A stretch of DNA of 61,014 nucleotides, counting the filler, from Sphacelaria rigidula (lineage: Eukaryota), in the NCBI GenBank assembly GCA_964200075.2. It is 7 parts of 7 records of this genome, joined end to end, with 100 filler letters (N's around TTAATTAATTAA, not from the genome) between each part and the next. Parts side by side here need not be neighbours in the genome. Positions count along the whole stretch, not along the records: positions 34,925 to 43,554 come from CAXNAA020010550.1; 6 more parts are not named here. One strand, given 5' to 3'. Below are positions 17,083-61,014 of this stretch, one piece after another. Within the stretch, counting starts at the first letter, position 1. Each line of letters begins with the position of its first letter. A program made the translations under genes and the position numbers. The notes under the pieces were generated by a model. It did no database searches, was not told the origin of the DNA, and was given only the letters and a program-made list of their open reading frames with translations.

Positions 17083-17111
17083 TACATTTCCAAACAAGAA
17101 TTATTATTTGT

Positions 17112-17256
17112 GCGACTCGCCAAACACATCATGGTGCTTCGCGCTTGGTGATCGCGAGCCTGATCCGGCGAGAGCAAGGCGTCCTCCGTCCCGGCTTTGA
17201 GTGACTGGATGCGAGGTCAATGGTCTTATGATTACGGCATACAAAATCATGATTAC

Positions 17257-17295
<39 letters not shown>
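17112..17295 (+). mobile_element. 5'-truncated copy of C-tailed SINE-like family B
   Basis: CTCCGTCCCGGCTTTG..GGATGCGAGGTCAATGGTC..ATCATGATTACA followed by a long C-run from 17258; homologous to copies at 38129 and 40947. Confidence 0.8.
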
Positions 17296-17296
<1 letters not shown>

Positions 17297-17462
17297 ACCT
17301 CCTCCCTTCCTCCCCCCCCCCCACGGCCCACCAGCACTCACCTCAACCCCCAACAAACCCAANNNNNNNNNNNNNNNNNNNNNNNNNNNNNNNNNNNNNN
17401 NNNNNNTTAATTAATTAANNNNNNNNNNNNNNNNNNNNNNNNNNNNNNNNNNNNNNNNNNNN

Positions 17463-19162
17463 TCGGCGGTCCGCCGTCCACGAGTCCTACTCGAAATCAA
17501 ATCTCGAACTTGAACTGGTAAGACGGAGTCAGCAAAGGACGGTTCTACACCTGCTGCGAAAACCATGCGCTGGCCAGTTGCACGAAAATGATCATAACCA
17601 ACAGTATTCGTAGACAGTCCATTCCAAACTGAGTACAACGATTGAGGTTGCAAGCTGCCTAGAACTGATGCGTGGGCTGTGGTCGTTAGCCCACCCATGC
17701 CTAAAGCCGGCGTTTCTCGCAGTGAAAGTGGTGTGTAGAGACCTCTATGTCCATTCCTGCTTATGAAATATACAATGTCTTCGGTGGGATCGGTGATATG
17801 TCCCATGGCGGATTCATCGATAGGTTGAGCTGGTGTGGGGAGGCGTGACAGGAAGTCGGCGTTTGCATTCTGGGGACCTGTGCGGTACTTCAGTTGAAAA
17901 TTGTAAGACGACAGGATTTTGAACCAGCGTTGGACCCTAGCGTTGTGTTCCGCCATTTTGGCAAGGGTTTCCAAAGACTTGTGGTCGGTATAAATAAAAA
18001 ACGGGATGTCATACAAATACTGACGCAGACGTCGCACGCCCTAAACAACTGCACCGGCCTCTTGTTCCATGACAGACCAACTCTGTTCATTCGGAAAAGT
18101 GGTGCGACTCAGATAGACAATGGGACGAACAGTAGCATCGACTTGCTCTTGTTCTAATGTGCAGCCAAACCCAATTTTGGAAGAATCTGTGTGGAGCCGG
18201 AAAGGGCGGGAACCCTGCTCCGCGGCCGACCAGTCGGGGAAGACGAGAATCGGCGGGCGCGACAGGGTGTCAAGGAGGCGGCGGACGGTTTTTTCCATTT
18301 CCAATGTGAACACAAATTTCACCCCTTTTTTGAGGAGGGTGGTGAGGGGGTTTAGCTTTTGGGCAAGGTTTGGCAAGTATCGTCTGTAGTAGCTTAGACC
18401 TCCCAACAAGGAACGCAGTTGAGAAATGTCCCGTGGCATGGGCATATCGGAGAGTGCGACGACCTTGTCGAGGTTTGGGCTACGACCTTCGGGGGTGATG
18501 CAATGACCCAAGAACTCAATCTTCGTGGCGCCAATGCGGGATTTGGAGGGGGCGAGTTTCAAGTTGTGTTGTTCAAACCGTTCGAAGAATGATGCCAACT
18601 GTTCGATGTGTTCGGCCGGTGTGGAGTCGTGGCACACCGCATCATCAAGGTACATATGGCATTTGGGCAATCCATCAGTTACACGGGACATCACACGTTG
18701 AAACGCACCTGGAGCTCCGGCGGCACCTTGTGGTGTAACCAACCACCCGTACAAACCTGATGGCGTGCAAAATGCTGTCAGTTCAATGGAATTGGGATCC
18801 ATCACAAGCTGGTGGTAGCCGGACTGCATGTCAAAGTTCGAAAATAATTTAACCGCGCCAAGAGAGTCAATAATTTCATCAATCCGTGGAAGTGGCAGCC
18901 GGGCGATTTTGGTGACAGCGTTCAATCGTTGATAATTGACCGTCAGTCTGATTTTTCCATTCTTCTTACGGACGACTACTAAAGGCGAGGCCAACGGAGA
19001 CGTCGAGTGCCGAATCAAACCGGCGGATAAGTAACCATCGAGAATTACCTGGATCTTATCCGCTAAGACGGGGTTCGTACAGTACGGACGCATAGCGATA
19101 GGCGGAGTGCCATGAGGAATCTTGATCTTGAACGGTGTCGTGGTACATCGACCTAGATCCAA
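17463..19162 (-). pseudogene. pol: Gypsy reverse transcriptase-RNase H (element 1)
   Basis: ASPLVVVRKKNGKIRLTVNYQRLN, FDMQSGYHQ, PQGAAGAPGAFQ, YLDD, FLGH; RNase H LHTDSS..EQEAGAVV*..YTDHKSL, NANADFLSR; in-frame TAG at 18041-18043. Confidence 0.95.
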
Positions 19163-19671
19163 GGGTGCAGTAGAAAACCGTTCAGAAGACTAATCAAGAT
19201 GGATCTCAGTCTATCGATTACAGTGGGTGTCCAACCATTGCCAGATAGATGAAACAAAATATGCCGCAAGTGAGGGAGAATATAATCCCACAACTTTTGA
19301 AAACTAGCGCGTTGTTCTGGAGAAAATCTATCCAGTAATGCAGCTGGAGGTTGAGGGTCAGGCGCATCCGGTGGATTTGTCACCACCATGGGGTCAGGCA
19401 TGTGTAGCGGACGGGGGCCCGTGGATTTCGGGGGGTCGGTGGGCGACTTGTTATTCGCCGGTGGGCACACATCTGATAGGGCGGTTCGTATGAGAGGCGC
19501 TTGAGCATAACCCAACAACTGACAGTTGAGTATATCGAAACATGCCGGGGGCGTGAGGTGAATGGCCTGCCTACCTTCGTGGACAAAGACTTTGATCTGT
19601 TCAAACGGACCAACCTGTGCTTGGTCAGGTTCGAGCAATTCGACCAAATAATGTCCTGTCAGGGCGGGCGA

Positions 19672-30690: not shown

Positions 30691-33173
30691 TTAGGGACCG
30701 TACTCTAGTGCTTGCTCTTCTCGCAATTTTTTGCGGTTGATTGACGTGAAGACGTTCGCTGCGCTTACGTGTACTGATTTCACGGTGAACAACTCTCGAT
30801 CACTTTGCACCGGTTTCAAATTGTCGAGCTTTTCAGCTGAAATCTGGAACTGATGCTGTGGCTTAGCTATCTGTAACTCAGGGGTTTCTGGGACGTTACG
30901 GCATATCGGCGCAAGCAACGGCTTGATTTCTGCTTCCTGTCGCTTTTCAAACGAAAATAGCCGTGAGAGGTTGTCCGGTGTAACATGAAGTATCCCCGGT
31001 TTATGTTTGACCGTGAAATCATACGATTGCAATGTGATCGCCCATCGGGTCAACATATTACTTGTATCCTGCATCGCATACAAATATCGAAGAGCGGCAT
31101 GGTCTGTTACACACGTAAAGTGACGTCTCCAGAGGAAAACTCAAAAATGTTGAATCGTTGATACGACCGCGTAACATTCTTTCATGGTGAGCGAATAGCG
31201 GGCCTGGGCGTCGTTGAAACGTTGACTGAAGTATGCTACGATTGCCTCGTTTTCGCCTTTCCTTTGGGAGACGTAGGCCCCAGCCCCACGGTCTGAAGCA
31301 TCAACGTTTATGATGAAGTCTTTCGTGAAATCTGGAAAATGAAGGACGGGTGCCTCAGTCATCAATTCTTTAATTTTCTCGAAGGCTTCATCATGTTCAG
31401 TATTCCAGAGTTTCGACACTTGTTTTGCCGCGCCTTTCTTTGTGAGATCTACCAGTGGTGCTATGGCTGTAGCCAAGTCTGGTATGAATTTCCGCACGAA
31501 ATTTATTGTACCGAGTACTGATTTCAACTCTTTAATATTGGTGGGTTTCGGCAAGTCGAGGATAGCTTTTATTCTTTCTTCACTCACTCTGATGCCATCT
31601 GCGGACAGTACATGACCCAAATATTTGACTTGCTTTGGACCAAATTGGATTTTTGTCGCCTTTAGTGTAAGGCCTGCTGTTTGCAGTGCTTGGAACGTGC
31701 TTTCTAGTAGGGTGAGATGATTCTCCCAGCTTGATGAACAACAAATTATGTCATCCATATACACTACTAAGCCACTCTTGGGTCCGACGTGTGCAAATGC
31801 TAGTGCCATTATGCGTGAGAAGATAAAGGGTGAACACGCTACCAAATGGTAACCGGTTGAACACCCATTTCCCTCTCTGATTTACAAACGCTGTTTTCTC
31901 AAACTGTTATGAATTTCGCCCCCGCTACTGTATCTATGTGACTTTCGATAGCTGGCATGGGCCATGATTTGCGAATCAAGTTTTTATTTATCGCTGCTCG
32001 ATAATCTGCGCAAAATCGTGCTGTTCCATCTGCTTTTGCGACTATTGTAACCGCTGATCCCCGCGGGCTTGGGCGTTGTTCGACAATACCATCTTTTTCC
32101 ATTTGGTCGACGCATTTGTCGATTGCGTCTTGCACTCTGGGGTTTGCTCTATATGGTGCTCGGTCTACCGGCTGAGTCCCAGGTTTGAGCGAAAAATGTG
32201 CTTCGTCCAACGTACAACAGCCCAATTCCTGCGGATTAAGTGAAAACACAGAACGGTATTTTGCGGAAAGATCCAGTATTTGACAGTATAGTTCCGGGGG
32301 GAAAGTCGCATTTTCGAAAGCTTTGCGTAAAGCCGGACGTAAATCCTCTTTTGCATTTTTTCTCTCTGACACCTTATTTCCCGCCATCGCACTGACTGTA
32401 GCTGGTTTTGTTTCTCGTACTGGGGTGATATAGCCTAAAATCGTATTATGTTTCACGTTCACATGTCGATTCGACGGATTCGCGATTTGTACCATTGCCG
32501 TATTATTTGTCGCCGACCATGTGCACACCGTCCTTGCAACGATGATGCGCGTGAACGCTTGGGGTACATCGGTTGATCGAATGTCTTCTTCGGCTATAAT
32601 GCGTGGCTCTACGACGGCTGCTGTTGTTCTTGACGGGGTATTTTCCGTTTCAAATAATACGGCCATCTTACTCTGCGGGGGCACGCTGCATTTCTTTGTG
32701 AGAAAAACTGGAACAGCGGTAAAACAGTTCACACTGACTACAGAACAATGTGTCGTTCCGGGGTGTGTTGTATTTTGTGAACACCGTTGTTTTCGATGCG
32801 ATGCTTTGACTTGTATACTGGAATCGCGGAATGTTAGCTCTTCCGCTTGCCAGTCGAGTATAGCTTGGAAAACACTCATAACGGGATTGTCCAGTGAAAG
32901 GCAATCCGGTCCTAGGTTAGGTAATACGAATGCTTCTACTGGTAGGGTTTTCATCCCTAACGTAAGTTCAAAACGTATGAAACCTAGAGTTTTCATGGGT
33001 GAGCCGTCCGCACTCCTGAGGTCTATCGAACCTTGCGGTACTGGTTTTATATCAGCTGTCATTATAGCCGGGTGTTCATCGAAGAACGTTTTGCTGATAC
33101 AGGGCGCGTCTGCTGCGGAATCAATTGTGATTTTTTCAGCGGGGGTGCCGTTTACTCTGGATGTGACTCTCAC
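30691..33173 (-). pseudogene. pol: Gypsy protease-RT-RNase H (element 2)
   Basis: ITIDSAADAPCIS (protease-like), RFCADYR, KTAFVNQRGKWVFNRLPFG, VYMDD, YLGH, NVDASDRGAG, MKECYAVV, TDHAAL; frameshifts and an apparent deletion at ~31899 removing the first catalytic Asp motif. Confidence 0.95.
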
Positions 33174-33720
33174 ACGGGCTGATGCGCAGGACAGTGCAAA
33201 GGTGCAACTGTATATCTGGCAAGCGAAGATGCGTTGTAAGAGCCATAACAGTGATATTCAGGATCGGTTTTGAAAACGAAGATCGGTGTTTCGATTTTTT
33301 ATTTTTCTGCAATGCGTTACTCACAAAAAAGCCGCCTGCGGAGCTAAAAATATACGTTGTGTCTGTTCTACGCATTCGCTGTTTGTACTCTGCTCTCTGC
33401 TGCTATGCTCCTGCTCGTGCTTATCCCGTACATGGTTGACCTCTACCCGAGACCTCTTACGCATTCTCCGTGGTTGGCCTGCCGTACCGTCAGAAAAATG
33501 AAACTCTCTCATCTTGCGAGCTAGAGGGTTGACGATTTTGCTTCCTTCTGTTTCCCTCGATTTTTTACGTAAGGTTTCTGCCCTGATCAGACGAGGGGTC
33601 TTCTCTTGGGCGCCTTCACGGGGTGTACTTTTTAGCAAACTCTACATGGCTCTGCATAAGGCGGCAATCCGCTGTCTCGTGTGTGTTCTTGTACCTGTAT
33701 GGTGCGTACTCACAACGGAC

Positions 33721-34773: not shown

Positions 34774-36540
34774 AGTCCCTGAGCTCTCTGTGGATTGGAT
34801 CGGCGTAGTGTTGACACTTTCTAGNNNNNNNNNNNNNNNNNNNNNNNNNNNNNNNNNNNNNNNNNNNNTTAATTAATTAANNNNNNNNNNNNNNNNNNNN
34901 NNNNNNNNNNNNNNNNNNNNNNNNCCGTTTCGACGTCTCTACATTTGCCTTGCCCGCGTGTTCATTTCTTCTTCGATTTCCTCGTCGAACGCCGTGCTTG
35001 TTTCTGATGTTCCTAGTTTACGGAGGGACGGGGGGGGAGCTTTCCACAGGTTGTGACAGACCACAACAGAACAGAAAAATGTATGTATTTACTCTTACAT
35101 ATGCCGGCGTGGGTTTACATTTTACATGTCCTAGAACAATACGCTGTGTTCTGTCCGCTTACACAGCACGATAAAGCTTTTCTTACTTGGCTTCCCATGA
35201 AGGTTGCAAGTGTTCGCCAAGGACGTCTACAGCACCGTGACGCCGCACGTAATTCTGTCACGTATGAAACACCCGTAACATAATACAGTACGGCGGGATT
35301 TCACATGTCGTGACGGTACGTATTTCGTCTTTAGAACTCAAGTATCGAGATCTTGTGCAGAAAGCGCGAAACACCCAGTGCGATAAAGTGGCGTGTTGGC
35401 TATTGCAGAGACTACAAGAACGTCGTCGGAAATTCATGCTTACACGTGAAATGGGCTTGAACGTGGCTTCTTCACCCGCCATACTTGGAATACTTCCTCC
35501 TTTCAATTTTTTATTTCCCATATTTTCTTTTCTTGAAGAGTTTCGTTTCGGAAGTGTTTCCGTTCTATTCACTTGGGTACGTATATCCAATGACCACGGC
35601 TGAAGTCGTAGCGGATCACTCCGGGTGCAACAATCGACAAATCAACCGATTCATCAATGGTCACTAGAAGCAGCAATCCCCCTACAGTCGTTTTTTGCTG
35701 TCATTGCGGCAAACTGAAGATGTACCGGGACAGAATATGCTGAATTAAACTAGCGGGCGAAGCCCGCATCTCAAGCCAAACCTCCCACACAGAGATTAGG
35801 GTAACCCAAACTAAATTGAAAGCAGCGCGACTATGGCCGAGCGTTCAAACTCAGCACTGGCCCAAAATTAAAGACCTCTCCACAATCAGACGGAGGACTG
35901 AAACATGGGATATGTCCTGTTTCGTTACTTTACCGCAGCAGAAACACTCAAGCCCTCTCGCATGTGTTGGAGCTTCCACTGTCTGTTCTGTTGTCGTGTA
36001 CTCACGCATTGCGAACACGGTTTGGATTGCATGGTCTGCGATTTTGTCGTTGTGTTCGTCTCTGCAGAAAACAACGTTGGTCGGCACGCAGTGCTGGCTG
36101 CACACTGATGAAAACTTCATGGGTGTGTTGACGGTTTCGTCTCCGGTGAGACGAACAACGCGCTGTCCGTTGCTGCGACACTCCAGCTGGTGCCGTGCGT
36201 CGGGCGCCTGTACTGTACCGTACTGCTGTATTGTGTTCAGTGTACAATACTGTAATATCTATGATATTGTATTCGGCTGAAACGCGCTACGAGTTAGACC
36301 GCACGAACACTTGGTTTTGGACTACTCCCCTGGCGATTCCCAAGCGAAATGGAGCGATCTGATTGGTAGTTACCCAGCGAAACTTTCCCGCTCCAAATGC
36401 AGTCTGCTAAAATGCGACCTCCACTTCCAGGTCCCGTTCAAACAGACATGAAACTGATAGCGAAGGGGTATAACCGCGGTGAACGGCCAAGAGATGGCCA
36501 GGTTCGCGACCTTCGGTAGATGGCGTCACGAACATCATTC

Positions 36541-37074
36541 CAAGGTTGCGTTCTGTAGGGTACGGTTTTCTGTAAACCCGGGGCATTTTCCCGGGTATTT
36601 ACCGTACCCGACACTTTCATACCGGTACCCAACAGTTCTGTAAACTCTGTCAGACTTTCATACCCTTACCCGATAGTTCTGTTAGTTTTGTAAGCATCCC
36701 GTACCGTTACCGGGGGCACAGGTCTGCTCTTGATAAGATACCTTGCTGCGGGCACGGTTTTCTGTGCAGACTCCATACCCTGCCCGACCGTTTCCGTGAC
36801 TTTTGCACGCCCCCCCATACCCTTACCCGACAGCTCTGTGAGTTCTGTACATAATGTATGCCCGTACCGGGAGCGCGGGAATGCCCTAAAAAATAACCGA
36901 TTGCCGGTGCGGTTTTCTGTAAGCTTTCCATACCATACCCGACAAGTTCTGTAATTTCTGGAAGGCTTTATAACCGGTACCCGACAGTTTATTTTTGTGT
37001 GAGACTTTCGTACCGGTACCCGATATTTCTGTAAGTTCTGTAAGGAATCCCATACTCTACAGAACACAATCTTG
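36541..37074. mobile_element. MITE with CAAG termini (hAT-like) filled with GTACCCG/TTCTGTAAG subterminal repeats; related copies at ~60142-60400 and ~60700-60830
   Basis: TIR CAAGGTTGCGTTCTGTAGGGTA / TACTCTACAGAACACAATCTTG; ATCATTC occurs in both flanks (imperfect 8-9 bp TSD). Confidence 0.78.
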
Positions 37075-37343
37075 CAATCATTCCGAGTCAAGGGGAACCG
37101 TGGAACGAACGGGAGCAGCGTGGTAGACACCCACTATACTCCTCTAGCCCCTTACCAGAAGCTAAAACTGCGGAGAACACAAGCCCCTACACAAAAAGCA
37201 CGCTATTAAATAAAAACAGTATCGTGTGCAGGTACACAGCACACCGCCACAAGTACTTACCAACACCACGGTAACAGAGCTGGCGCCACCTTAGCACAAC
37301 AACAAACACTCATCAACAACCAAACAAATGACTTAATACCCAC

Positions 37344-37750
37344 CTGAACTCTCACAGTCTCCGGCCCCGTGGGCTCCGACGGTGGCACTAGCCCAGGGCA
37401 ATACACCCTGCCTACGCCGTCCCCATCACCACCGCTTCCCGCGTTTCCGGCGTCCGAAGATTGATCTTTACCGCCGGGTGTACCCTGAGACAAGGAAAGT
37501 GCGATCGCTCGAGCAACATCACTATCGTCATGTTCCATTGTGCGCGCCACTGTCGTCCCCGCACTGCTGTTCCCCCCTGCACCCTCTTCCATGCTCGCGG
37601 CTAGGGCCAACGCCAACTGTTCATCCTCTGTTGATCTTGAACCGGCTCCAGTTGCGCCGACACTTGGCCCGCCGCCGTCCAATCGATTGCCTGGGCCGGA
37701 GTTAAGCCAAACGTCTGTCGCTGCTGTCGACGGCTTGCCCGTTGTGCCTC
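37344..37750 (-). CDS. ATXN3: Ataxin-3 homolog, exon with two ubiquitin-interacting motifs
   Basis: gcag|GA..TTCAG|gtggg; phase 1 in, phase 0 out; UIMs TEDEQLALALAASM and DDSDVARAIALSLS; ends VPPSEPTGPETVRVQ. Confidence 0.9.
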
Positions 37751-38128
37751 CTGCGGCCGTAGGGTCCCCAAAACGTAAACCGTGCAAAAAAGCAGGCGCG
37801 GGGAAAATCAACAAAACCTCTTGAAGAATCAACGAGGGACGTATCACGTATCACATCAATTCTTTGCAGTTCTCGTATGACAGTTTTCCAAGCTTTGTAG
37901 CTTCAACAGCACGTACACAAGCGTGTGCTTTTCTACATTGCACCCAGTGACCCCATATGTCGGGCAACACTTCACCCACCCCGCCGTAACATGGGATGGC
38001 CCCACAACGACTACGCCCTGGCTTAGAATGGCACACTTGTACCACTACCAAAAATGCCAGCGCACTGAATGTTCTGTACAGTAATGTTCTGTTGCGTACT
38101 AGGTATGAGACATATTAAGGGGGGGAGG

Positions 38129-38594
38129 GTACTCATGATCTTGTATGCCATAGACTGTCGACCTCGAATTTCTACAAAGCCGGGACGGAGCACGCCGGTG
38201 TTTCGCCGGACCAGGCTCGCAGTCAATCACCAAGGAAGAATCGCTGTGATGTGTGCGGCGAGTCGCATGAAGGATGACGCAAATCCTGCTAACATTGTTC
38301 GGCCCGAAGCGTACTGATAATCTTGCATTTGGATGGCAGCTTCCAATGAGTTGCTTCATTTTGTGATATCGCCACTTCTAGAGACAGGGCCACGGCTTAC
38401 ACACCGCCTCATAGGTGTCTCACCATAAAAACACTACGTGGTATGACTATCCCCTTTGCGCGTAATCAAGCTTCTCCCACCCCTCACAAAATGATCTAGC
38501 CATCAATAGATCACCATCATGATTTTCCTGGTCGCGTAGCTTATGCAGTGAGTGGCGTGTTTAACAGGGTCACTGCCAACAGAAGCCAACTCCG
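38129..38594 (-). mobile_element. Apparently full-length C-tailed SINE-like family B copy in an ATXN3 intron
   Basis: 3' end ..AAGATCATGAGTAC+C-run; flanks TAAGGGGGGG (38116) and TAGGGGGGG (38595) look like a TSD; collinear with the 40947-41452 copy. Confidence 0.8.
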
Positions 38595-38943
38595 TAGGGG
38601 GGGCGTTTGTGGGGGGACGGGGGGATCGATAACGGACCAAACATCGCAGCAACGCTTGAGCGTGCAATGGTCAACGGCCAGAGACAGACGCTAAAATCCC
38701 GTCGTGCAACCCTCCATGCCAGCCACTGCCGCACTCCAACACAGCAATTATACTTGGGATGCAAGTCGACGGAATGAGGGAGGGCTCATCCAATGCTCGA
38801 CTGCAAAGAAGCCAATCAAGTGCCGCAAGAGAGATGGATTGATCACAGGGGACTACGCACCCACCCCGAGAAGGGGAAGGGAAGGGGAGCGGTTAAACTC
38901 CAGGTGGCGACAAAGAGAGAGAGGTCGTACCGGTACCACATAC

Positions 38944-39120
38944 CTTTGCCTTGGGCAACTTCCAACAAGTCCTTGACGCGATACCAGCAGTCGCGAGCAC
39001 CCTCTCCGGGAGATTTGCGGGCTGCTGGGGGTAGCTGTCCCCCTCGAACCACAAAAACGGAGTAGCCGTCAGCTTGAAGTTGGTGCAACGTGGCTTCCAG
39101 GGCAAAAGTCGTTATCCGCG
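38944..39120 (-). CDS. ATXN3: Ataxin-3 homolog, exon with the Josephin C-terminus
   Basis: cag|CG..AAAG|gtatgt; phase 1 matches the previous exon giving DYP-TRITTFALEATLHQLQADGYSVFVVRGGQLP (ataxin-3 QLQxxGYSIFVVxG motif). Confidence 0.92.
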
Positions 39121-40946
39121 CTGCTCATCGTCGACGCCGATGATGGCCAATGGCACACATACATCCGGCAGATGAAGAGCAACATCGGCAGAGGGAGACG
39201 GGAAAGAGATATCACTGATCGGCGAAAATGGTTGGTATTCAATCAATCGAAGAGACCTTTGTGGAAACACTCGTCAACTACTACACTTTGAACCGACATT
39301 TCTTTTCCAGAGCTGCAGAAGTCGTTGTACGGGTGAACGGGGGTCCCGCCGTGATCATGAACGAGAACGCATGTATCAAAGCTTTCTCCAAGCCAATCTG
39401 GAATTTTCGGCAGTACATACCCTACGTCCCCTGGAGTGCTTATGTAGGTACTCAAAATATGAAAGTCCATGGCACACCAGAGTACGTGCACTCCTCAGGC
39501 ACCTGTGAGGAAAGTAAGCACAAAAATCAAGAGTCGACGGACTGCATACTGTACGAGTACTGACACAACGCTCGGCCATGAAGTGCAGGGCAGAAAGTAC
39601 CCGAAGTAGAGAGATGAGTCTCTGATCTGATCCCTTGAGGTCAACGAATGGCTCGTCCCGAGGAGGGTGGGAGCTCTATTACCGTCGATCGATTGATCTG
39701 ATTGCTTGGTTGGATGAGTGGTTGATTGTCCGTCGCACATTAACCCTTTTAGTAGTGGCAATGGAGGAGCGTGGATTTCGAGGTCCTGTTTTTTTAACGA
39801 CATATGGTTGAGTATTTCCAGCTTTTACGCAAAACTACTAGCCCGACCCGTGTTTTTCAGACCCGCATAAAAATGTGCCCCAGTGCCGCACATGACACCG
39901 TATAGTATATACTCCCTCTGGTCGGGAATGTAAGCTCGCTTAGAGAAAACTGTGAATATCAGGGGCCCATGAAAGAGTTTCCCCGAAGTTTTGTTCATTA
40001 GTTTCCTTATGACTCGGAGAAACGCTGGAAACCGAGTATTTTTCATGAAAACCTAACATCGAACTACTCATACAGCCTGGAGGAACAGATACTAAAAATA
40101 AAATCGGAAAACCTCCGGTTGAACGGGTCCCGGTCAAAAACTTTCGGAAACTTGTTCACGGTGGTTCTCCTAGCGTTAGGGATAATTGCGCAATACCGAG
40201 ATGTCTGGGAGGCGACCATTACAGCAGTCAGTCGACCCAGAAGAAGATAGGCACTCTAGGGGGTGTTACCTGGCGTCAATAACTCCGGGGATGAAATTAT
40301 GCCTTGCCCGCACCCATTTTTTTTGTTGTCGAAAATCACGGACCCATCAGTCATTCAGAGAACACTAAGTGGTCCCCAGCCAGAAAACGCCAGAAAGCGG
40401 TCCTGTTGGAGTTATCCCAGACGAGTTTATATTTCTACCAAATTGATTCGAGCTTATATTCCCGACCAGACGAAGTAGAATGTAGACAGGTGGTGCTGAT
40501 TTTTGTTCGTATAGACTTCAGGCCCCTAACCGCTGATTTTGGCTGTGTGCGCAAACTTTAACAAAATCGACATGTTGCGTCCCTCACCGGACCAAACTAA
40601 TCTGACTGCACCGGGATGACATTTTTGGTGCGAGCATGACTTATGCTGTCAAACTGTTCTGCGGTCTTCCGCCGTGAAAATTGCTTCCGTAGGTCTTTTC
40701 GGTTCTCATCCTTTCTTCTTTGTCAGGGCTTGAAATAATGAGGCGTCTGGCCCGGGGACGGAAGGGGAGGGTTCCCAAAGGGTGACATGATCCCCGATGG
40801 ATGTGACCTACTGATGTAGTCATGTATGCATGCCGTGGTCATTGTCCACAATATGAACGTACCCAAGGTAAACAACGGACACGGAAATGCTCGCTAAAGA
40901 AAAAGAAAAGTGTGTGTGTCAATGTGTGGGAGGGGATGGGGGGGGG

Positions 40947-41452
40947 TGTACTCTTGATCATGCAGTCATAAGACCCTTGACCTCGTATCCCTACAATGCC
41001 AGGACGGAGCACGCCGGGTTCCCGCCGGGTTCCCGGCGAACCAGGCTCGCACTCAATCACCAAGAACGAAGCGCCGTGGTGTGTTCGGCGAGTCGCATGA
41101 ACGGTGACGCACATCCTGCTAAGATTGTTCGGCCCGAAGCCTACTGATTATCTTGCATTTGAATGAAAGCCTCCAATGAGTTGTCTTCTTCTCTGGTATC
41201 GCCACTTCCTGAGACAGCCACGGCTTATACACTGTCTCATGGGTGCCTCACCATTTCAACACTGCGTGGTACGATCATCCCCACTGCGCGGAGTTGAGGT
41301 TCTCCCACCCCGCGCAACATAAGCTAGCTCGACTACCATCATGGTTACCGCAAAAAAACGCAAGCGCGCAAAAAACACCCGGTAAACTGGTTGCCTAGCT
41401 TCCGCAGTGAGTGGCGTCTTTTGCAGCGACATCGCCAACCGACACCAACCCC
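40947..41452 (-). mobile_element. Apparently full-length C-tailed SINE-like family B copy in an ATXN3 intron
   Basis: 5' end GGGGTTGGTGTCGGTTGGCG coincides with the 5' end of the 38129 copy; 3' end ATCAAGAGTACA+C-run. Confidence 0.8.
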
Positions 41453-41661
41453 ATCATGAGTCCGCCCCCACAAAGGCAAGAAATTTAAGGAGCAATGTAA
41501 AAAATAAAAACCGAAAAAAAGGAATCAGGAAAAGAAAAAGAACGGAACGGAATAAAATGGAATAGAGAAAATAGTAATGAAAATAAAGTCAAAACCAGAA
41601 GCAAAAATGATAAAAAAATAAAACTCACTAGACATAATTGTACCCAAAAGAGGCGCCTCAC

Positions 41662-41768
41662 TTGGATAGTCCAGCATGGAGTTGAGATCCCAGTACGTGC
41701 CCCCTACGGAGCGAATCGCGATCCAGTGAGCGTGTCTATTCAGGACGAACGCTCCCTCCCGCTCGTAC
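41662..41768 (-). CDS. ATXN3: Ataxin-3 homolog, Josephin domain exon carrying the catalytic His and Asn
   Basis: cag|G..CCAA|gtgag; YEREGAFVLNRHAHWIAIRSVGGTYWDLNSMLDYP matches the Josephin pattern FxxNxxxHWxxxRxxGxxWxxLNS. Confidence 0.92.
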
Positions 41769-42059
41769 CTGCCCAAGGTGCCACGTTCCAGGCCATGTAC
41801 AAAAAAGGGTACAAATCAGTTTTTTCATCACTCCATGCAACGGATAAGAGCCTGGCATGGGATACGGCAGGTGGTGGCGTTATACAGCGCATATGGTACC
41901 CCCGGCCACATGTAACACAACAACATACTTCAAATCCCTCGTCCCACAAGTTAGAGTCTTTGGCTTCACAAGTGGCCTTCGCCCCAACGGCATGTGTGTA
42001 CGACATACGAGTTGGTAGCGCAAGACATTTTCCGCGGAAGCCATGTGGCAGAGGCCGGT

Positions 42060-42286
42060 CATTTCTTTGTTTTTTCTTGATTCATTTATTCTCTCTTCAT
42101 GTCTTTAGTCCACTATGTTGTTCAGTTCTATATTTTCTGTTTCTTACTTCTTCTACAGCGAGTGCTCCAGTCTTGTTTCGTTTCGGGTACGTCCATCACC
42201 TGGATAATGACCACGACTGGATCATGACTCCTGGCGGGGGAGGCGGGTCAGTTGAAGTGCGACAATCAATCAAATCAGTCAAATCG
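42060..42286 (+). mobile_element. 3' end of a retroposon family with (AATC)-type tail; other copies ~35500-35655, ~58600-58841, ~59360-59561
   Basis: T-rich segment, shared core GGGTACG..ATC..TGACCAC(G)GCTG, ending GACAATCAATCAAATC. Confidence 0.65.
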
Positions 42287-43129
42287 TTTGGGAAAAAATA
42301 AAGGTAGGAATCGGAAGTCGATGAGAAGCCACGAGAAAAAAAAACGAGGTTTATTTTTGGTTCTATATTTGGGGCAAGAACGACCGACTTTGTGAATATT
42401 TTCGACATACCTTTCTAGGTTGTTCTCGAGACTCAGGTTCCATCGATGCGGAGGGCGACTACCTTCTGAGGGAGGAGAAAAAACTCGCTTTGTAGCCCCC
42501 GCCAGAGGGACGATATATGGCCATTTTCAGGCGGACTGTTTCTTTTCCCATCATTCGGTCGCAACATGAAACGGATGAGGATAAAAAGAAATGGTTCCAA
42601 TCCCAAAAAGCGAAACAAAACGATAGAAAACGCCTTAATCGAGCATGGTTGAGGGCCCTTTTAAACCCAAAGTTATCGGACGGACGTATATATCATGCAG
42701 TTAATACTCCGCATAAACATAGACCCTATCTGCTCTGCTCAGGGTTCTGGAGCTGTGACAGGTAGCCAATCACCCGCTTTTGGGTACTGGCCCGCAATGG
42801 AAGTTGTCTTCGGGGGTCGCCGTCGGTGGGCTTTTTTCTACTGAAAAATACGTAAATTGGAGCTGTCACTGTTAATTATCCGGCCGCGAAGCAATCCATT
42901 TGATCTCGCGTGTGCATGGCAGTGCACCACTGTGGGAGTGAAATGTATGAATCCAAAACTTTGAACGATATCCGGAGTTTCTTCGCGTGTGCGTGCACTG
43001 TACTATTACATATTGTCACCACACTCGACAACGGGATAAGGAAGTTATGTGTGCTTTTCCGAATAAACTCTCGTCAATCACGGACACCTCAACACATACA
43101 AACCCGGTGAAGCTGCACAATAAAGTGTT

Positions 43130-43451
43130 TCTTATAGTAGGGGAAGTTCCGGTTTCTGCAGAAGAGGAGAAAACAGGATGTGATATGAGAAAGCTTGGTA
43201 CACTAGACGATAGCGACGAAACGGCCGTTATACTAAGAGATAGATGGCCGCAGACGGCGGAACAGGAAAGGGATAAGATAAGTAAGAGGCTCTTGTGGAA
43301 TGTATGGGTGTACTCATGTATGGGGGGAAAGTCATGAGCGTGTAAATGTTGGCGGTGTCTCCATCACGAGAAGGGACGATGCTTCGTCTAGAAAGGGATG
43401 CGTGATCGTGATAAATGGTCAAACGCCTAAGGCAAACGGCAAATGAGTACG

Positions 43452-43482
<31 letters not shown>

Positions 43483-43554
43483 ACCCCCCCCCCCCCGCCG
43501 CCCCACCACCCCCCGACCACCACAAACCACACCCCCACCCCCCCCACCCCCCCC
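43130..43554 (+). mobile_element. LINE 3' end (family A) with poly(C) tail
   Basis: Encodes IVGE..TAVILRDRWPQTAEQERDKISKRLLWNVW (ORF2 C-terminus-like); ends AAATGAGTACG then C-run from 43452 to the contig end. Confidence 0.8.
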
Positions 43555-43725
43555 NNNNNNNNNNNNNNNNNNNNNNNNNNNNNNNNNNNNNNNNNNNNTT
43601 AATTAATTAANNNNNNNNNNNNNNNNNNNNNNNNNNNNNNNNNNNNNNNNNNNNCCTGCAGTTTGTTGTTTTGTTTTTTTGCTGCTCGCCCCTCCGAGGG
43701 GGCCGGCGGGGGGCGCCCGGCGGGG

Positions 43726-43758
<33 letters not shown>

Positions 43759-44724
43759 GTCGCGGCGTCACTCTCACGTACTCCCCCGGTGATTCATAGT
43801 GCGAAGCGGTGAGAGCATGAGTTGGCGAACATAACAGCACAATTCGACGAGATTCGACGAGAGTTACAGGAGTGCGGATCCCATTGGTAGATTGGTTGTC
43901 GAACATGGCCTATTCCATCACGACTCCTGCGTTGTCATGACATACACGAAGCGGAGGTGACGAACGGCAACACTCCCTACCAGAAGGAAACTCGAAAAAG
44001 GGGACATGTATCTGAATTCTCGATAATATAACGAAGGGCCATATATCGGGGTAGGTATCGGTCGATCCTTGAGACGACGGACTCGAGTCGAGGAGGGGGA
44101 GGGAGGGGGGGGGAGGTGTACTTATGATCATGCATGCCATAATTATAAGATCATTGACCCCGCATCCCTACAAATAAGTGGGGGGCGGGGGCGGGGGATT
44201 GAAGTGCATCACTTGTGAGGAAAATGTAGTGATGCGCGTGGTTGGTTACGATCAGGGCGTGTATAATTTTGACAGCGAAACTAACTCGCACACAACTGCA
44301 GGGCATGAAACAGAGAACTTATCGTCGCAACGTATAATATATTAATTTTAGTATGTATATATTGTAGATATTTCGGGTTGCATGTACTTGGTAAATAATA
44401 TCAACCATGAGCGACAATGACCGTGGGAAAAAAATATGTTACTTTCTAAGGTGACATGTCGTCCGGTCCGCCCTATGGCGTCCGATGCGAAAAATGTCAA
44501 GTCGAACCTATTTCACCAATTCTGTTTCCCAAAAAGACGCAGAAGTGAGTCGGCTCGCCGTGTATCCTCGTGCGTTTATCTACTGGCAGAGCTCGTTCCC
44601 AAGGCCACCCTAGCCGTCGTGAAACCTACCGCTGTTCCCCTGCCAACGGGCCCGCCCCCAACAAGTGAAGCAGACGAGGTGAGGGCCAGTTCTAGCGGGA
44701 ATGTTTGTTGCCTGCAAATATCGC

Positions 44725-45216
44725 AGTTTGTGGGGTTGTCTCATGATCTTGCATGCCGTAGTCATACGACCATTGACCTCGCATCTCTACAAAGCCGGGA
44801 CGGAGCACGGCGGGTTTTTGCCGGACCAGGCAATTTGTGTGTGTGTGGGGGGGGTGTGTGGTACTCATTTGTTGCTTGCCTTGGTCGTTTGACCATTGAC
44901 CACGCATCCCTCTCGAGACGGAGCACCGTTTCTACTCCTAATAGAGACGCCTCCAACATTCTGGCGCTCATTACGTTTTTTCCACACATTGCACAAAAAC
45001 GTTCTACACATCTTATCCCCGTCCTGTTTCGCCGTCTGTGGCCACCATCTATCTCCTAGTATAACCATCGTTTTCTTGCTGTTGTATGATGCGTCGAACG
45101 ATTTCATGCCACCTTCGTTCACGTCCCGCATTTCCCCCTCTAATTTGTGGGCGGGGGGTGTACTCATGATCATGCATGCCATAGTCATGACACCATTGAA
45201 ATTTGTGTGTGGGGGG
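44725..45216 (-). mobile_element. Stack of three C-tailed retroposon fragments (B ~44738-44831, A 44861-45141, B ~45160-45199)
   Basis: Family A part encodes ILGDRWWPQTAKQDGDKMCRTFLCNVWKKRNER..GCVVNGQTTKASNK*; fragments separated by repeats of A(A/G)TTTGTG..GGGG. Confidence 0.82.
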
Positions 45217-50100: not shown

Positions 50101-53100
50101 TTCGGTCACAGTTTCATGTTTATGGAAGAAATAAGACGTCTTACGAGGAAGAGTCCTGCAGTGCGGGTGGAACGATGAGGAAAAGTGCATAGGAAAAAGA
50201 TTGCAGCGGGACTGAGAAAGAGGGCAACGGTCGATAGGCCGTAGCATTCCCTCCGTTCGCACCGATGTCTCGAGGTTATTGTGTTTGTTTACAGAGAAGA
50301 CGATGTTGGTTGATGGAAGTGGGAAGGGATGATATTATGATGATGAGAACAATATTTACGAGACGAGGAATAGGACCGCGGGTATGAATGATGAGATGAC
50401 GTGCGAAGATTGCAGTAGAAGACGAAATCGACTCCCGGTGTAGAAAAAGTGTGTTTTTACGGCACCACCAGCAGGAAAAAAAATCCCGACCCAGGACTCG
50501 AACTCAACTCGGTGTGAAAAAACAGCGTTCTACTCACGCACTACGAGCAAAAATAGGTGGATACAGGGTTCGAACACCAACCAACTTCTTGCACGTCCAT
50601 GAGTGTACGTTTCACCTACAGAATACACGTGCATCATGTTCAAAGTGTCGCGCCGAATATCATCTTGTATAAATGCTCAACTTTGAATATATTGTCATGA
50701 TTCCAATATATTATATACAGTATAAGAAGCTCGAGTGCGGGCGTGTGCGGGCATTTTACACACATTCCAGTAAAATCACGTGGACGGGTTCGAACAATGG
50801 GTAAACAAATTGAACATGAAAAATACCGGAGCATTGGGTGCCCGACCAGTACCGAGTAGCCGCCCTGGTGCAGGATACAAAGATGAGTAAAAGTTCTCGC
50901 AGACGAGCTTAGTGCATGACCGCGACTATGTGCTGGCTCAGTGGACACATCGTGAGACATTGATCACATTTTTAGCTTGTTCCGTCAACGATTGAGGGCA
51001 AAATCAGAGTCTGCGTCCCGTTTTCTACTTGGGGTATACAGGACGGTTCAACCTTGTTTTGTACTGTACTGTCAAAAGAGCGACTTGGCCTCGGCAGGCA
51101 AGTAGAACGCTTGCTCTACATAGACGGCCTCCGAGGAAAACCTCGCGCTACAGGACGACTGTCCGAGAGGCATATACTCCTTTATATACCGAGGTGGTGA
51201 AGTCTCCAACATCCAAAGTCAGAGAAGACGGGGCCACGTGCCGATTTGTACATGGTCGGATGCGGTCGTCACGTTTGAAGATCACAACAACAGTACAGTA
51301 CAGTTGCGGCCGGGAGATGAGAAACGTCAATTTGGGGTTAAGGCTCGAAGTCTTATTTCGGGTGCGAACACCAGCATGAGTTGTGTTTTTTCTTATATTG
51401 AGTTTTCTTATATTATGCCGGCACAAAGGACTCAGGCCTAGCGGTCGCACAAAGCACAGCCCCAACCGGCATCGATCGCGCCGCATGAAACAGCCGTAAA
51501 TAAAAAACGTATGCCGCTCCCACAAAAAGTACAGTTTAGCAGGGGGGGGGGGGGGTGAGGGGGGGTCTAGATGTAGAAGGTACGTTTCTTAGTTCGGAAG
51601 GGGCTCCCCAGTCACCTAGTTTATTATTTCTTATGGCTATTTCAGGTATGTATCCGCGCTGTTTCTTATTTTTATGTTTCTTATCTTGTCGCCCAGTTTG
51701 AGGTGTGTTTCTCAGTCTATTTTTATTATTTTCCCTCAAAGGCCCAGCCTAATTTTCTCAAGTATATTTTTTTAAATTACGGGCCGCAACTGTAGTCTCA
51801 ATACTTGTAGTCGTCTTGACTGGATGATACTACTGTTCTTACTGTCTGTGTTTGACCATGACATCGGGGGAGTAGTCCATCTCGGTCATGTATACATTTT
51901 TGATGTGAAATTGATGCCGATTCAATCCATGACCTCTCGCTGCCTGCGTTTTGTCGGTACTGTACTATTTCTTACATCCCTTGCACCGGCAATCATTTGC
52001 GTCGGAAGCTTTCAACTCCAGACTGAGATTGACACAACGTCAGCATTCAGCGCCGTATTGCACTAGACTTCGTTTCACGCCCCTCCTTGTGTGCGAGAAG
52101 CTGTCGGTGCACCCACACACCGACAATCAGCACCGTGAACTCTCTGTTCTTTATGTCGTTATGTACTGTCTGTACTCCAGCATAGATAGATTGCTTGCAC
52201 CAAGTAATCATCTGCTTCGGAGATATTGCAGGACCACCGCAATCTCGCGTCCGTTCGAACGGTCGCGAACGCAGGTGTACCCCCNNNNNNNNNNNNNNNN
52301 NNNNNNNNNNNNNNNNNNNNNNNNNNNNTTAATTAATTAANNNNNNNNNNNNNNNNNNNNNNNNNNNNNNNNNNNNNNNNNNNNGTTATCGCACTATAAA
52401 GGACAAAAAACATATAGTGCGCGAGGTCGATATAGTGCGGGTCAAAAGCCGTGTCACATACCCGCACTATATAGGCCCCCCTACTGTATGGTGATTGGAA
52501 CCAGCGATGTTTCGTCCGGACGTTGAAAAGCTAAATGGCAAGATTGACATGAAGCCATCTCCTTCCTCGGACCGGGTCGGTACGAGTAGCGTCAAGAGAT
52601 CGACCCGCACCTGCTGCGCTACTTGCCTTGCGGTACATGATAGAAGTTTAGACTAGCATTCCTGCACCCCGTCGTCTCTTGTCGAATTATCTCTTGCTAT
52701 TCGCGTCCTGACGCTTTCACCGACGAAAACAAGACTCTGCTCTGAAATACCGCATCTGTGCAAACCGCGACCAATCGCCCCAGCTGGTCAGTGTGGTACA
52801 ATTCACAAAATCGAGTGGGGCGGCGTGGGCGTGTACAAAAGGGATCGCGGTCGACGATAGCGAGCTGCACAGCGCGTGAGCGAAATGAACCATGTCATCA
52901 GAACTCACGTGGTGCCCCTGTGCTCCGGTCGCTTATAATGTACTGTAAGCGACACTTCCGCATTGGCTGGACGATTACACCGAACGATGGCGAGTGTTTG
53001 CGTAGTAAAATTCTACCTTTCATTTGATGAAGGCATTGCTGTTTGAACATGTTGAGCATCATTTTCTCTCTCGCGTGCTGTACGTGTTCGCGTGGGGTTG

Positions 53101-59100: not shown

Positions 59101-61014
59101 CATCGCTTCTGTAGCCTCCTCTGTTCTCTCCTGCTGTCCCCAACTCTCTCCATACATTTGTGCTTTCATCCCGGTATATGCAAGCGGCAGTTTGGTGCCT
59201 CGCTTCCGTAGGGTTCGTGACTGAGAGTTTCAAACCCAAAATAGAGAGGTTGGAATAGAGGAGCGGCAATCTGATGACACGGCTTTCATTGTTGACGATT
59301 GGATATGAGTGTCACATTTTGCGCAAGACCGTTTGCACCGGAGACATGTTGCAGAGACCGACCATATTGTTATTTTTTGTGTTTTTTGTGTTTTTGTTTT
59401 TATCTTTTCTGGGTCGATTCTCTGCCCTACCTTTCTATATATTTCCAGTTTTCTTCAGCGAGTTTTCATGTGTTTGTTTCATCTCGGGTACGTCCATCAC
59501 GTGACCACGGCTGGACCCCTGGGGGATCAATCAGTTGAGGTTCGACAATCCGTAAATCAATGTGCGTGAATTGTGGGATAACGAGGCAAACGCCACTACT
59601 ACTGCAACCTGTAGAACCTGACTACGGGGAGACGCTGTGTCACCAAGCAGGGACATCGTCTACATGACTATTCTTGTTAGTTTTTCGCTTTAAGACAGCG
59701 CCATATTCGGAGCATTCGGCACTGTGTAGTAACAAACGAATAGCGCTGTCAGCCATTGCTCGCGAGGTTTCTGGCAGCATGTAATTAACAACGTGCCCCG
59801 CAGGGTGAATCGGGGGGAGATGCTTGTGTCGATTACCTGTGAGCCAGGGCGCCATCACAACGTTGCTGTCACAATAGGGAAATGCACGCACGGTATATGT
59901 GGCAGCGAGTGGATTAATCACGAAGCGTGAGAATGAATAATGAAAACCCGTAACGATGAGAAGTGGATTCCTCGACAAAAATTGCGTTCACCCAACTCAA
60001 TCCGCCGAAAACAGCAGTCTTTATGTAGGAAGAGTTCATTCACGAGTTTTCCGTGTGGTACATGCGCTGATATATCGACGTCAAGTTCCCAAACCTCGAG
60101 AGGAGGTTGAGGCTCTGTCGGCGAAAACAGAAAAAACGTTGCAAGGTTGTGTTCTGTAGGGTACGGGTTTTTGTAAACCCGGGGTATTTTCTTGAGTACT
60201 ACCTGTATCTGAACGTCATGTTACTTCTGTAAGACTTTTGTACACCGACCCGATAGTTCTCAGTTATATAATAAGATGTCCCTACTCATACCCGATAGTT
60301 CTGCAAGTTCTGTAAGCCTCTCAGACTCGATCCTACCCGGGGTTTGGTTATACCCTTGTAGATATATCCGACGCAGGTACGAACACAGGTATATATACCC
60401 TGGGAACGTATGGATATAGGTCAAATCCCGACACACTGCCGTGATCTCGACTACTCCCCCGAACCCCCATCAATCAATCCCCCCTCGTTCACTCGACACC
60501 ACACACCCACAGAAATCAAATTGATACATTTTGTACACGGACGGGCTACAGGGTACCCTCAGGTGGAGACACGAACATGAGCAGCAATGCAATCCGTCAG
60601 GATGGATCACCTCCAGACTGGAGTGGGGGCGGTTCATCTGTGCTGTAAGGGGGATCAAATAGTGACGTGCAGATCACCGACGTTGATGGTGGTTGTGTCC
60701 AGGGTTGTGCTCCGTAGGGTAAGCCTTTTCGTACACCACGGATGTTTTTCCCGGGTATATTGTCCGTACCTGACAGCTTTGTGACTTCTGTGAACCTGTG
60801 ATGTCGGTGGCCGACAGTTCTGTAACTATTCTCTTTGTGGACAGGACGTGCCTCTCCACCTCTCTTTGTAGATGGGATTTTCACACGAGACACTCTCTAC
60901 GATAGCCCCCCCCCAAAAAAAAAAGGTGCCCGGTTTGGGGAGGGAAAATCTTGACGTAAATTGAAATGGAAAAGGCCGAGCACAACGAGCAGCTGGGAAT
61001 TCCCCAGCGTGCGT

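Follow-up and report, generated by a model that had tools for sequence, protein, structure and literature searches.

Several dispersed repeats in a stretch of Sphacelaria rigidula DNA end in nearly the same short motif beside a run of C, which raises the question of what kind of element leaves such an end and where the C's come from. The window, by which we mean the whole stretch analysed (61,014 nt, filler included), consists of seven pieces of about 8630 nt each, joined by N44-TTAATTAATTAA-N44 linkers. A first-pass annotation had claimed that eight copies in three of these pieces are non-LTR retroposons ending in poly(C) instead of poly(A). All eight were recovered with an end in ATGAGTAC(A/G)-like sequence beside C-rich DNA, and they are distributed over pieces 2, 5 and 6 (Table 1). 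We consider it likely (probability about 0.85) that these sites are the 3' ends of two partnered retroposon families in a eukaryotic, probably brown-algal genome, a LINE (family A) and a non-coding partner (family B), inserted by target-primed reverse transcription at C/G-run targets.

Table 1. Copies of families A and B, their tails and the associated target duplications (positions count along the window)
Feature	Position	Strand	Evidence or remark
Family A copy A1, 5'-truncated, decayed	43134..43451	+	tblastn of P0023; alignment with A2
C-rich tail of A1: C31, A, C13, then irregular C-rich sequence to piece end	43452..43554	+	
Family A copy A2, last 92 codons of LINE ORF	44861..45141	-	tblastn, peptide search
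A2 3' junction: CACACA, C8, (AC)5AAATT	44832..44860	-	tail plus one copy of the repeated target
Family B, near full-length, ~465 nt	38129..38593	-	repeat search, alignment of ends
Family B, near full-length, 506 nt	40947..41452	-	C9 tail at 40938-40946
Tail-only piece: ATCATGAGTCCG, C5, ACAAAGG	41453..41476	+	opposite orientation, abuts 5' end of 40947-41452
Family B fragment, ~150 nt, 3' end ATGATTACA	17109..17257	+	
C37, then C-rich sequence to piece end	17258..17362	+	
Family B fragment, ~63 nt	44117..44179	-	C-rich 3' tail 44089-44116
Family B fragment, 96 nt, 3' end, degenerate motif CATGAGACAA	44736..44831	-	
Family B fragment, 41 nt, 3' end only	45159..45199	-	
5' copy of ~17-nt duplication around the 41-nt B fragment: CCCCCCACACACAAATT	45200..45216	-	
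3' copy of that duplication: CCCCCCGCCCACAAATT	45142..45158	-	also the 5' flank of A2
Last copy of the repeated target: CCCCACAAACT	44725..44735	-	followed by unique DNA

The pattern ATGAGTACRCCCC, allowing up to two mismatches, matched the window 10 times, compared with a mean of 2.05 (largest value 6) in 100 shuffles. Six of these matches are genuine element ends, two are tiny tail-only pieces (41456 on the plus strand and 43305 on the minus strand), and those at 33620 and 33701 are chance-like. The two other sites, near 44738 and 44861, have diverged too far to fit this pattern and became plain once the ends were aligned. The former is the most degenerate of the eight, as had been noted at first reading, and with just C4 it is the sole window end lacking a run of at least six C's. 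A profile built from the eight window ends recovers the same eight by construction, and its single additional match is weak (E 0.062, 40843-40816) and has no C-run. Viral contigs scanned for the upstream part of the motif yielded two chance matches, neither of them with a C-run.

At least six consecutive C's were found within 14 nt of seven of the eight window ends and of all five ends at loci outside the window (L001-L005), that is in 12 of 13 cases. By comparison, such runs follow 0.47% (plus strand) and 0.62% (minus strand) of all window positions at this distance, and runs of at least eight C's lie within 14 nt of 0.2% of positions. The C-run stands directly behind GTAC(A/G) in 12 of the 13 ends. 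The whole window contains 20 C/G runs of at least 8 nt, about one being predicted from simple base composition, and nine of the 20 are tails of families A and B. The 11 others, for example C10 at 29129, G14 at 51542 and C9A10 at 60906, are without explanation.

The three longest runs (C37 at 17258, C31 at 43452 and G30 at 43727) each lie no more than about 110 nt from the end of a piece, and public contigs over piece 5 likewise stop inside the tail run, so the exact lengths of these three are uncertain. The G30 run (43727-43756) lies roughly 70 nt into piece 6 and has very GC-rich flanks (43655-43800). On the minus strand it reads as C30 behind ...GAGTACGTGAGAGTGACGCCGCGACAA and may be the tail of a third, otherwise unrecognised C-ended family; comparison of the region 43655-43800 with the tail profile and with LINE proteins gave no match.

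Family A is the 3' end of a LINE with endonuclease and reverse transcriptase in one long ORF. In tblastn searches with the related protein P0023, the window copies retain just the last 92-106 codons. A1 matches residues 1255-1360 and terminates in ...AAATGAGTACG, and its frame is broken by a 16-nt insert near 43300-43317 in the alignment with A2. The A2 copy is 67% identical to P0023 over residues 1269-1360, with its TGA stop inside ATGAGTAC, and its peptide matched 99 of 117 candidate proteins at E<=0.01. The full-length relatives P0023 (1360 aa) and P0067 (1328 aa) both terminate in ...VVNGQMTKASNK and contain Exo_endo_phos (PF03372) and RVT_1 domains, the endonuclease being upstream of the reverse transcriptase in one protein, as well as a C-terminal CxC...H...C motif (Cys/His knuckle). 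Exo_endo_phos_2 (PF14529) scored above the cut-off in P0023 alone (21.9 bits for P0067 versus a cut-off of 27.4).

The claim that this frame stops at a TGA within the terminal motif, about 5 nt ahead of the C-run, was borne out in A2 (44868-45143), in all of L001-L005 and in 17 of the 23 database proteins that were aligned to the window peptide. Five of the 23 continue past the common stop; in four of these the added residues are Pro-rich (CCN), as a C-run would encode. P0003 terminates a few residues short of the common stop.

Scans by C-terminal alignment confirmed one of 47 pattern matches in prokaryote genome contigs and four of 94 in metagenome contigs. The five loci outside the window all read AAATGA(G/C)TACG, followed by C13, C10, C8, C11 and CCTC7 in L001 to L005, respectively. 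An intact single ORF, of 1382 codons in L001 and 1426 in L002, is followed by TGAGTACG and C13 or C10; each locus has one long sense ORF and no separate ORF1, and all other ORFs of at least 150 aa are antisense. L001 shares 95.5% identity with L003 across 3774 nt, indicating that some copies are young. The proteins P0003 and P0020 continue from the tail of one copy across PP(P)P and on into the 5'-truncated copy that follows, and arrays spaced by the C-run alone therefore exist elsewhere too. The 5' UTR of L001 (~420-480) and the aligned L002 share a conserved stretch resembling a reversed B/A tail (GGGGAGGGGTGGATGATGCATG...ACTCATGAAAC), and the LINE 5' leader may carry an inverted tail-like segment.

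Family B is non-coding, with near full-length copies of about 465-506 nt, and is alignable with family A over the last ~60-75 nt only. Because it carries this terminal part of the LINE, it is presumably copied by the enzyme of the LINE. All eight copies of the two families have a common 3' end and a variable 5' cut, with lengths from 41 to 506 nt. Fixed 3' ends and variable 5' ends are the signature of non-LTR retroposition and, together with the ORF of family A, uphold the original assignment of these copies to non-LTR retroposons. Two tail-only pieces, 41453-41476 (+) and 43300-43317 (-), consist of 12-17 nt of the motif with a short C/G-run and are opposite in orientation to the neighbouring element. 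The latter is the 16-nt frame-breaking insert within A1. Such pieces may have arisen by extreme 5' truncation or as by-products of priming.

A search for a small-RNA head of family B gave no Rfam family at gathering score and no tRNA-like gene in the whole window, so that B has no recognisable tRNA-, 5S- or 7SL-derived polymerase III head of the kind that defines a SINE in the strict sense. No B copy was found in the genome containing L001, and BLAST of B against L001-L005 returned nothing at E<=0.01; thus the likeness of the B head to the LINE 5' region, noted for Ectocarpus, was not reproduced. The tail shared by A and B gave no consensus RNA fold (0 pairs). A hand-picked 5-bp hairpin in it, paired in 92.9% of cells, was rejected as its covariation was no better than that of shuffles.

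In three DNA-type sequencing runs, the summed word depth of the B copies, which is not a copy number, was 4-5 orders of magnitude greater than that of their unique neighbours, and B-like sequence is very highly repeated. A presumed-RNA contig joins 37344-37749 to 38943-39120, skipping ~1.19 kb with GT...AG ends on the minus strand, which places the B copy at 38129-38593 in an intron of a transcribed gene, in the same (minus) orientation as the host intron. An ORF upstream of this intron (37257-37850, minus) contains a ubiquitin-interaction motif. Among the other repeats in the window, pieces 3 and 4 contain fragments of Gypsy-type reverse transcriptase, RNase H and integrase (17747-19338, 30958-32318 (minus)), which mark the source as a eukaryote and are related to the Ectocarpus polyprotein P0114 (52% identity, 483 aa). 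Pieces 5 and 7 share arrays of ~41-nt units (ACTTTCATACCGGTACCCGA-like) at 36531-37044 and 60132-60343, another abundant family that is highly repeated in the public runs.

The flanks of the copies bear on how the elements were inserted. Read on the minus strand from 45216 to 44725, the sequence consists of a duplication, the 41-nt B fragment, a duplication, A2, a duplication, the 96-nt B fragment and a last duplication followed by unique DNA. The sequence (AC)nAAATT is missing from every other tail compared and, being confined to this array, belongs to the site. Here three elements were apparently inserted in turn at one site, each duplicating about 11-23 nt from the C-run on. The C-runs of the array are 6, 8 and 4 nt long on the 3' side versus 6, 6 and 8 nt on the 5' side. 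With no excess of length on the 3' side, the C-run at this site could be wholly target-derived.

A C-run in the 5' flank is present in five of the eight window copies. The copy at 38129-38593, with the tail CCTCCCCCCC at 38119-38128, has a C-rich 5' flank (38597-38624) with C7 three bases from its 5' end, and the fragment at 44117-44179 has C5GC5GC6 (44180-44197) directly at its 5' end. The copy at 40947-41452 has no 5' C-run and is preceded by the inverted tail piece instead; none was found for 17109-17257 and 43134-43451, where the 3' flank leaves the piece and a duplication is unreadable. Four copies outside the array show C-rich flanks only, or an unreadable duplication. Among public sequencing runs, 9 of 11 contain part of piece 5, and the contigs of four were placed on 34925-43554. 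No contig of these four cleanly skips an element in this interval, as expected of an empty site, and contig joints linking two B copies to each other were discarded as repeat artefacts.

In L1, a T-run primes on poly(A), the tail is carried in the RNA and the duplications begin with A's. By analogy, the flank pattern described here fits target-primed reverse transcription at a G-run, and the proposal of the first-pass annotation that these elements prime at G-rich targets is consistent with duplications that start with the C-run. We infer that the endonuclease would cut the bottom strand immediately 3' to a G-run, whose 3' end would then serve as primer for reverse transcription from C residues that terminate the element RNA on its 3' side. 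A second nick ~0-17 nt downstream would produce a duplication starting with the C-run and rebuild the target, which would explain tandem arrays. Runs of at least 30 C's could come from longer C-tracts in the RNA, from slippage or from stacked tail-only insertions. In its full form, with an oligo(C) RNA end placed on a G-run primer, lengthened by slippage or untemplated C to at least 30-100 nt and giving a self-regenerating target with tandem arrays, this mechanism is put forward tentatively, as one that may well prove wrong.

The C-run could also be purely target DNA. In that case an endonuclease specific for the edge of C/G runs would act with an RNA that ends in ...GTAC(A/G) without C's, and the runs would be the two halves of the duplication. 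The similar 5' and 3' run lengths in the array (6/6, 6/8 and 8/4) agree with this, as do the five window copies with a C-run in the 5' flank and the wording '(C)n termini/TSD' used by the Ectocarpus curators in the available part of supplementary file 1 (PMC12477816). We nevertheless regard it as unlikely, because C31 and C37 stand behind two copies and C10-C13 behind intact ones, whereas runs of such length are far rarer as free targets, and because very exact nicking would be needed to leave C's directly behind the last element base in 12 of 13 ends. By analogy, other homopolymer-tailed LINEs would keep the tail in the RNA, as is established for L1. Although the two longest are of unsure length, the runs C31 and C37 speak in favour of some tract that is RNA-borne or extended, and so do C10-C13 behind intact copies. 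That sequencing or assembly created the homopolymers artificially, for instance at contig ends, is very improbable: the three longest runs do lie near piece ends and public contigs break there too, but six shorter runs are internal to pieces, and the identical junction is found in five outside loci and several read-through proteins.

If the G-run were the polypurine tract of an LTR retrotransposon on the other strand, TGTACTCATGATC... would be the start of its 3' LTR, and the sequence does open with TG right after the purine run in a window where Gypsy-type elements occur. This is extremely unlikely, since a LINE ORF with endonuclease and reverse transcriptase domains ends at exactly that point on the C strand, the copies retain the motif end and lose the other end at variable points, and a repeat search revealed no paired direct repeats around them. 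Nor are the sequences internal parts of LTR or DIRS elements, the case that the first-pass annotation had named against its own view. Hardly any probability attaches to family B being a small DNA transposon with the motif as inverted terminal repeats: the inverted motif at 41453-41476 does lie directly against one B copy at its far end, but at the corresponding end of the other full-length copy (38129-38593) no such motif occurs, and the fragments always retain one and the same end. The preferred reading remains that of a LINE and its partner, both inserted by target-primed reverse transcription at C/G runs.

If the oligo(C) mechanism is true, target-primed reverse transcription would have, in addition to poly(A), a second homopolymer system in nature, and an oligo(C)-priming lineage may have seeded much of the C/G-run excess in such genomes. 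A lineage that primes at G-runs would offer a clean natural contrast to L1 with respect to the coupling of endonuclease specificity, primer pairing and tail synthesis. C-ended families of very high abundance spread long C/G homopolymers genome-wide, at which short-read assemblies break, and three piece ends of the window are located at long C/G runs.

C tails are rare among LINEs, and their mechanism has apparently never been asked about in print. The first-pass statement that no described C-tailed clade was known did not hold. In a study of the transposable elements of Ectocarpus (Genome Biology 2025, PMC12477816), the available part of supplementary file 1 records RTE-X families with '(C)n 3'' ends: RTEX-1a_Ec32 (5867 bp) is annotated as 'single EN-RT ORF; (C)n 3'', RTEX-2_Ec32 as '(C)n termini/TSD', and the TSD column for the RTEX families reads 'C-rich'. 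The nonautonomous RTEX-N1a (607 bp) carries the notes '60 bp 3' end 83% RTEX-1/RTEX-2' and 'can be present in tandem', and for RTEX-N1 the same source gives a 3' end conserved with autonomous RTE-X, a head of unknown origin and, according to its authors, no small-RNA head (PMC12477816, available part). In the literature, Repbase and Dfam aside, C-tailed LINEs were found only as these annotation notes, and the available main text of PMC12477816 does not discuss them: the word 'homopolymer' is absent from it, and 'tail', used twice, never refers to the C tail. The available portion of a Chlorella preprint on RTE-X contains nothing on tails. As the family type and its C-rich ends have already been catalogued for Ectocarpus, the discovery is a modest one.

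Among relatives with a named source, those closest to P0023 are unnamed products of Ectocarpus sp., which share 54% identity with it across 80% of the query and terminate in ...RVVNGLTAK. From its likeness to the published notes, family A probably belongs with RTE-X, with Ectocarpus as the nearest named source. A solved-structure search for the clade placed human ORF2p best (E 7e-21, RT region only), and was uninformative as L1 and R2 score alike. Like RTEX-1/2_Ec32 (elements of ~5.5-5.9 kb), the system described here has a single endonuclease-reverse transcriptase ORF, '(C)n 3'' ends and C-rich duplications, and like the abundant RTEX-N1/N2_Ec32 (~600 bp), it includes a non-coding partner with the last ~60 bp of the LINE and tandem copies. 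It differs in its host, probably another species, in that the B copies measure 465-506 nt (607 bp for RTEX-N1_Ec32) and in that P0023 is just 54% identical to the Ectocarpus proteins. Every structural point agrees with the notes in the available part of PMC12477816, RTEX-1/2 being compared here by description and not by consensus sequences. The window families are best described as a further member of the C-ended, RTE-X-like system of LINE and partner catalogued in Ectocarpus. Other LINEs of Ectocarpus end in (CAA)n (RTE-1/2_Ec32) or (CA)n (CRE-1_Ec32) according to the same supplementary entries (PMC12477816), and share with the present families a non-A 3' repeat with a probable role in priming, whereas the repeat unit here is a single C.

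Like L1, these families have a 3' homopolymer, probable duplications that begin with the homopolymer, 5' truncation and presumably mobilised non-autonomous partners. Unlike L1, they have C instead of A and one ORF and probably belong to another clade, and the partner shares a specific ~60-nt 3' sequence with its LINE (the 'stringent' type) rather than depending on tail-only recognition. UnaL2 and UnaSINE1 are a LINE/SINE pair with a common 3' tail, and the system in the window resembles them in that the partner bears the 3' end of the LINE.
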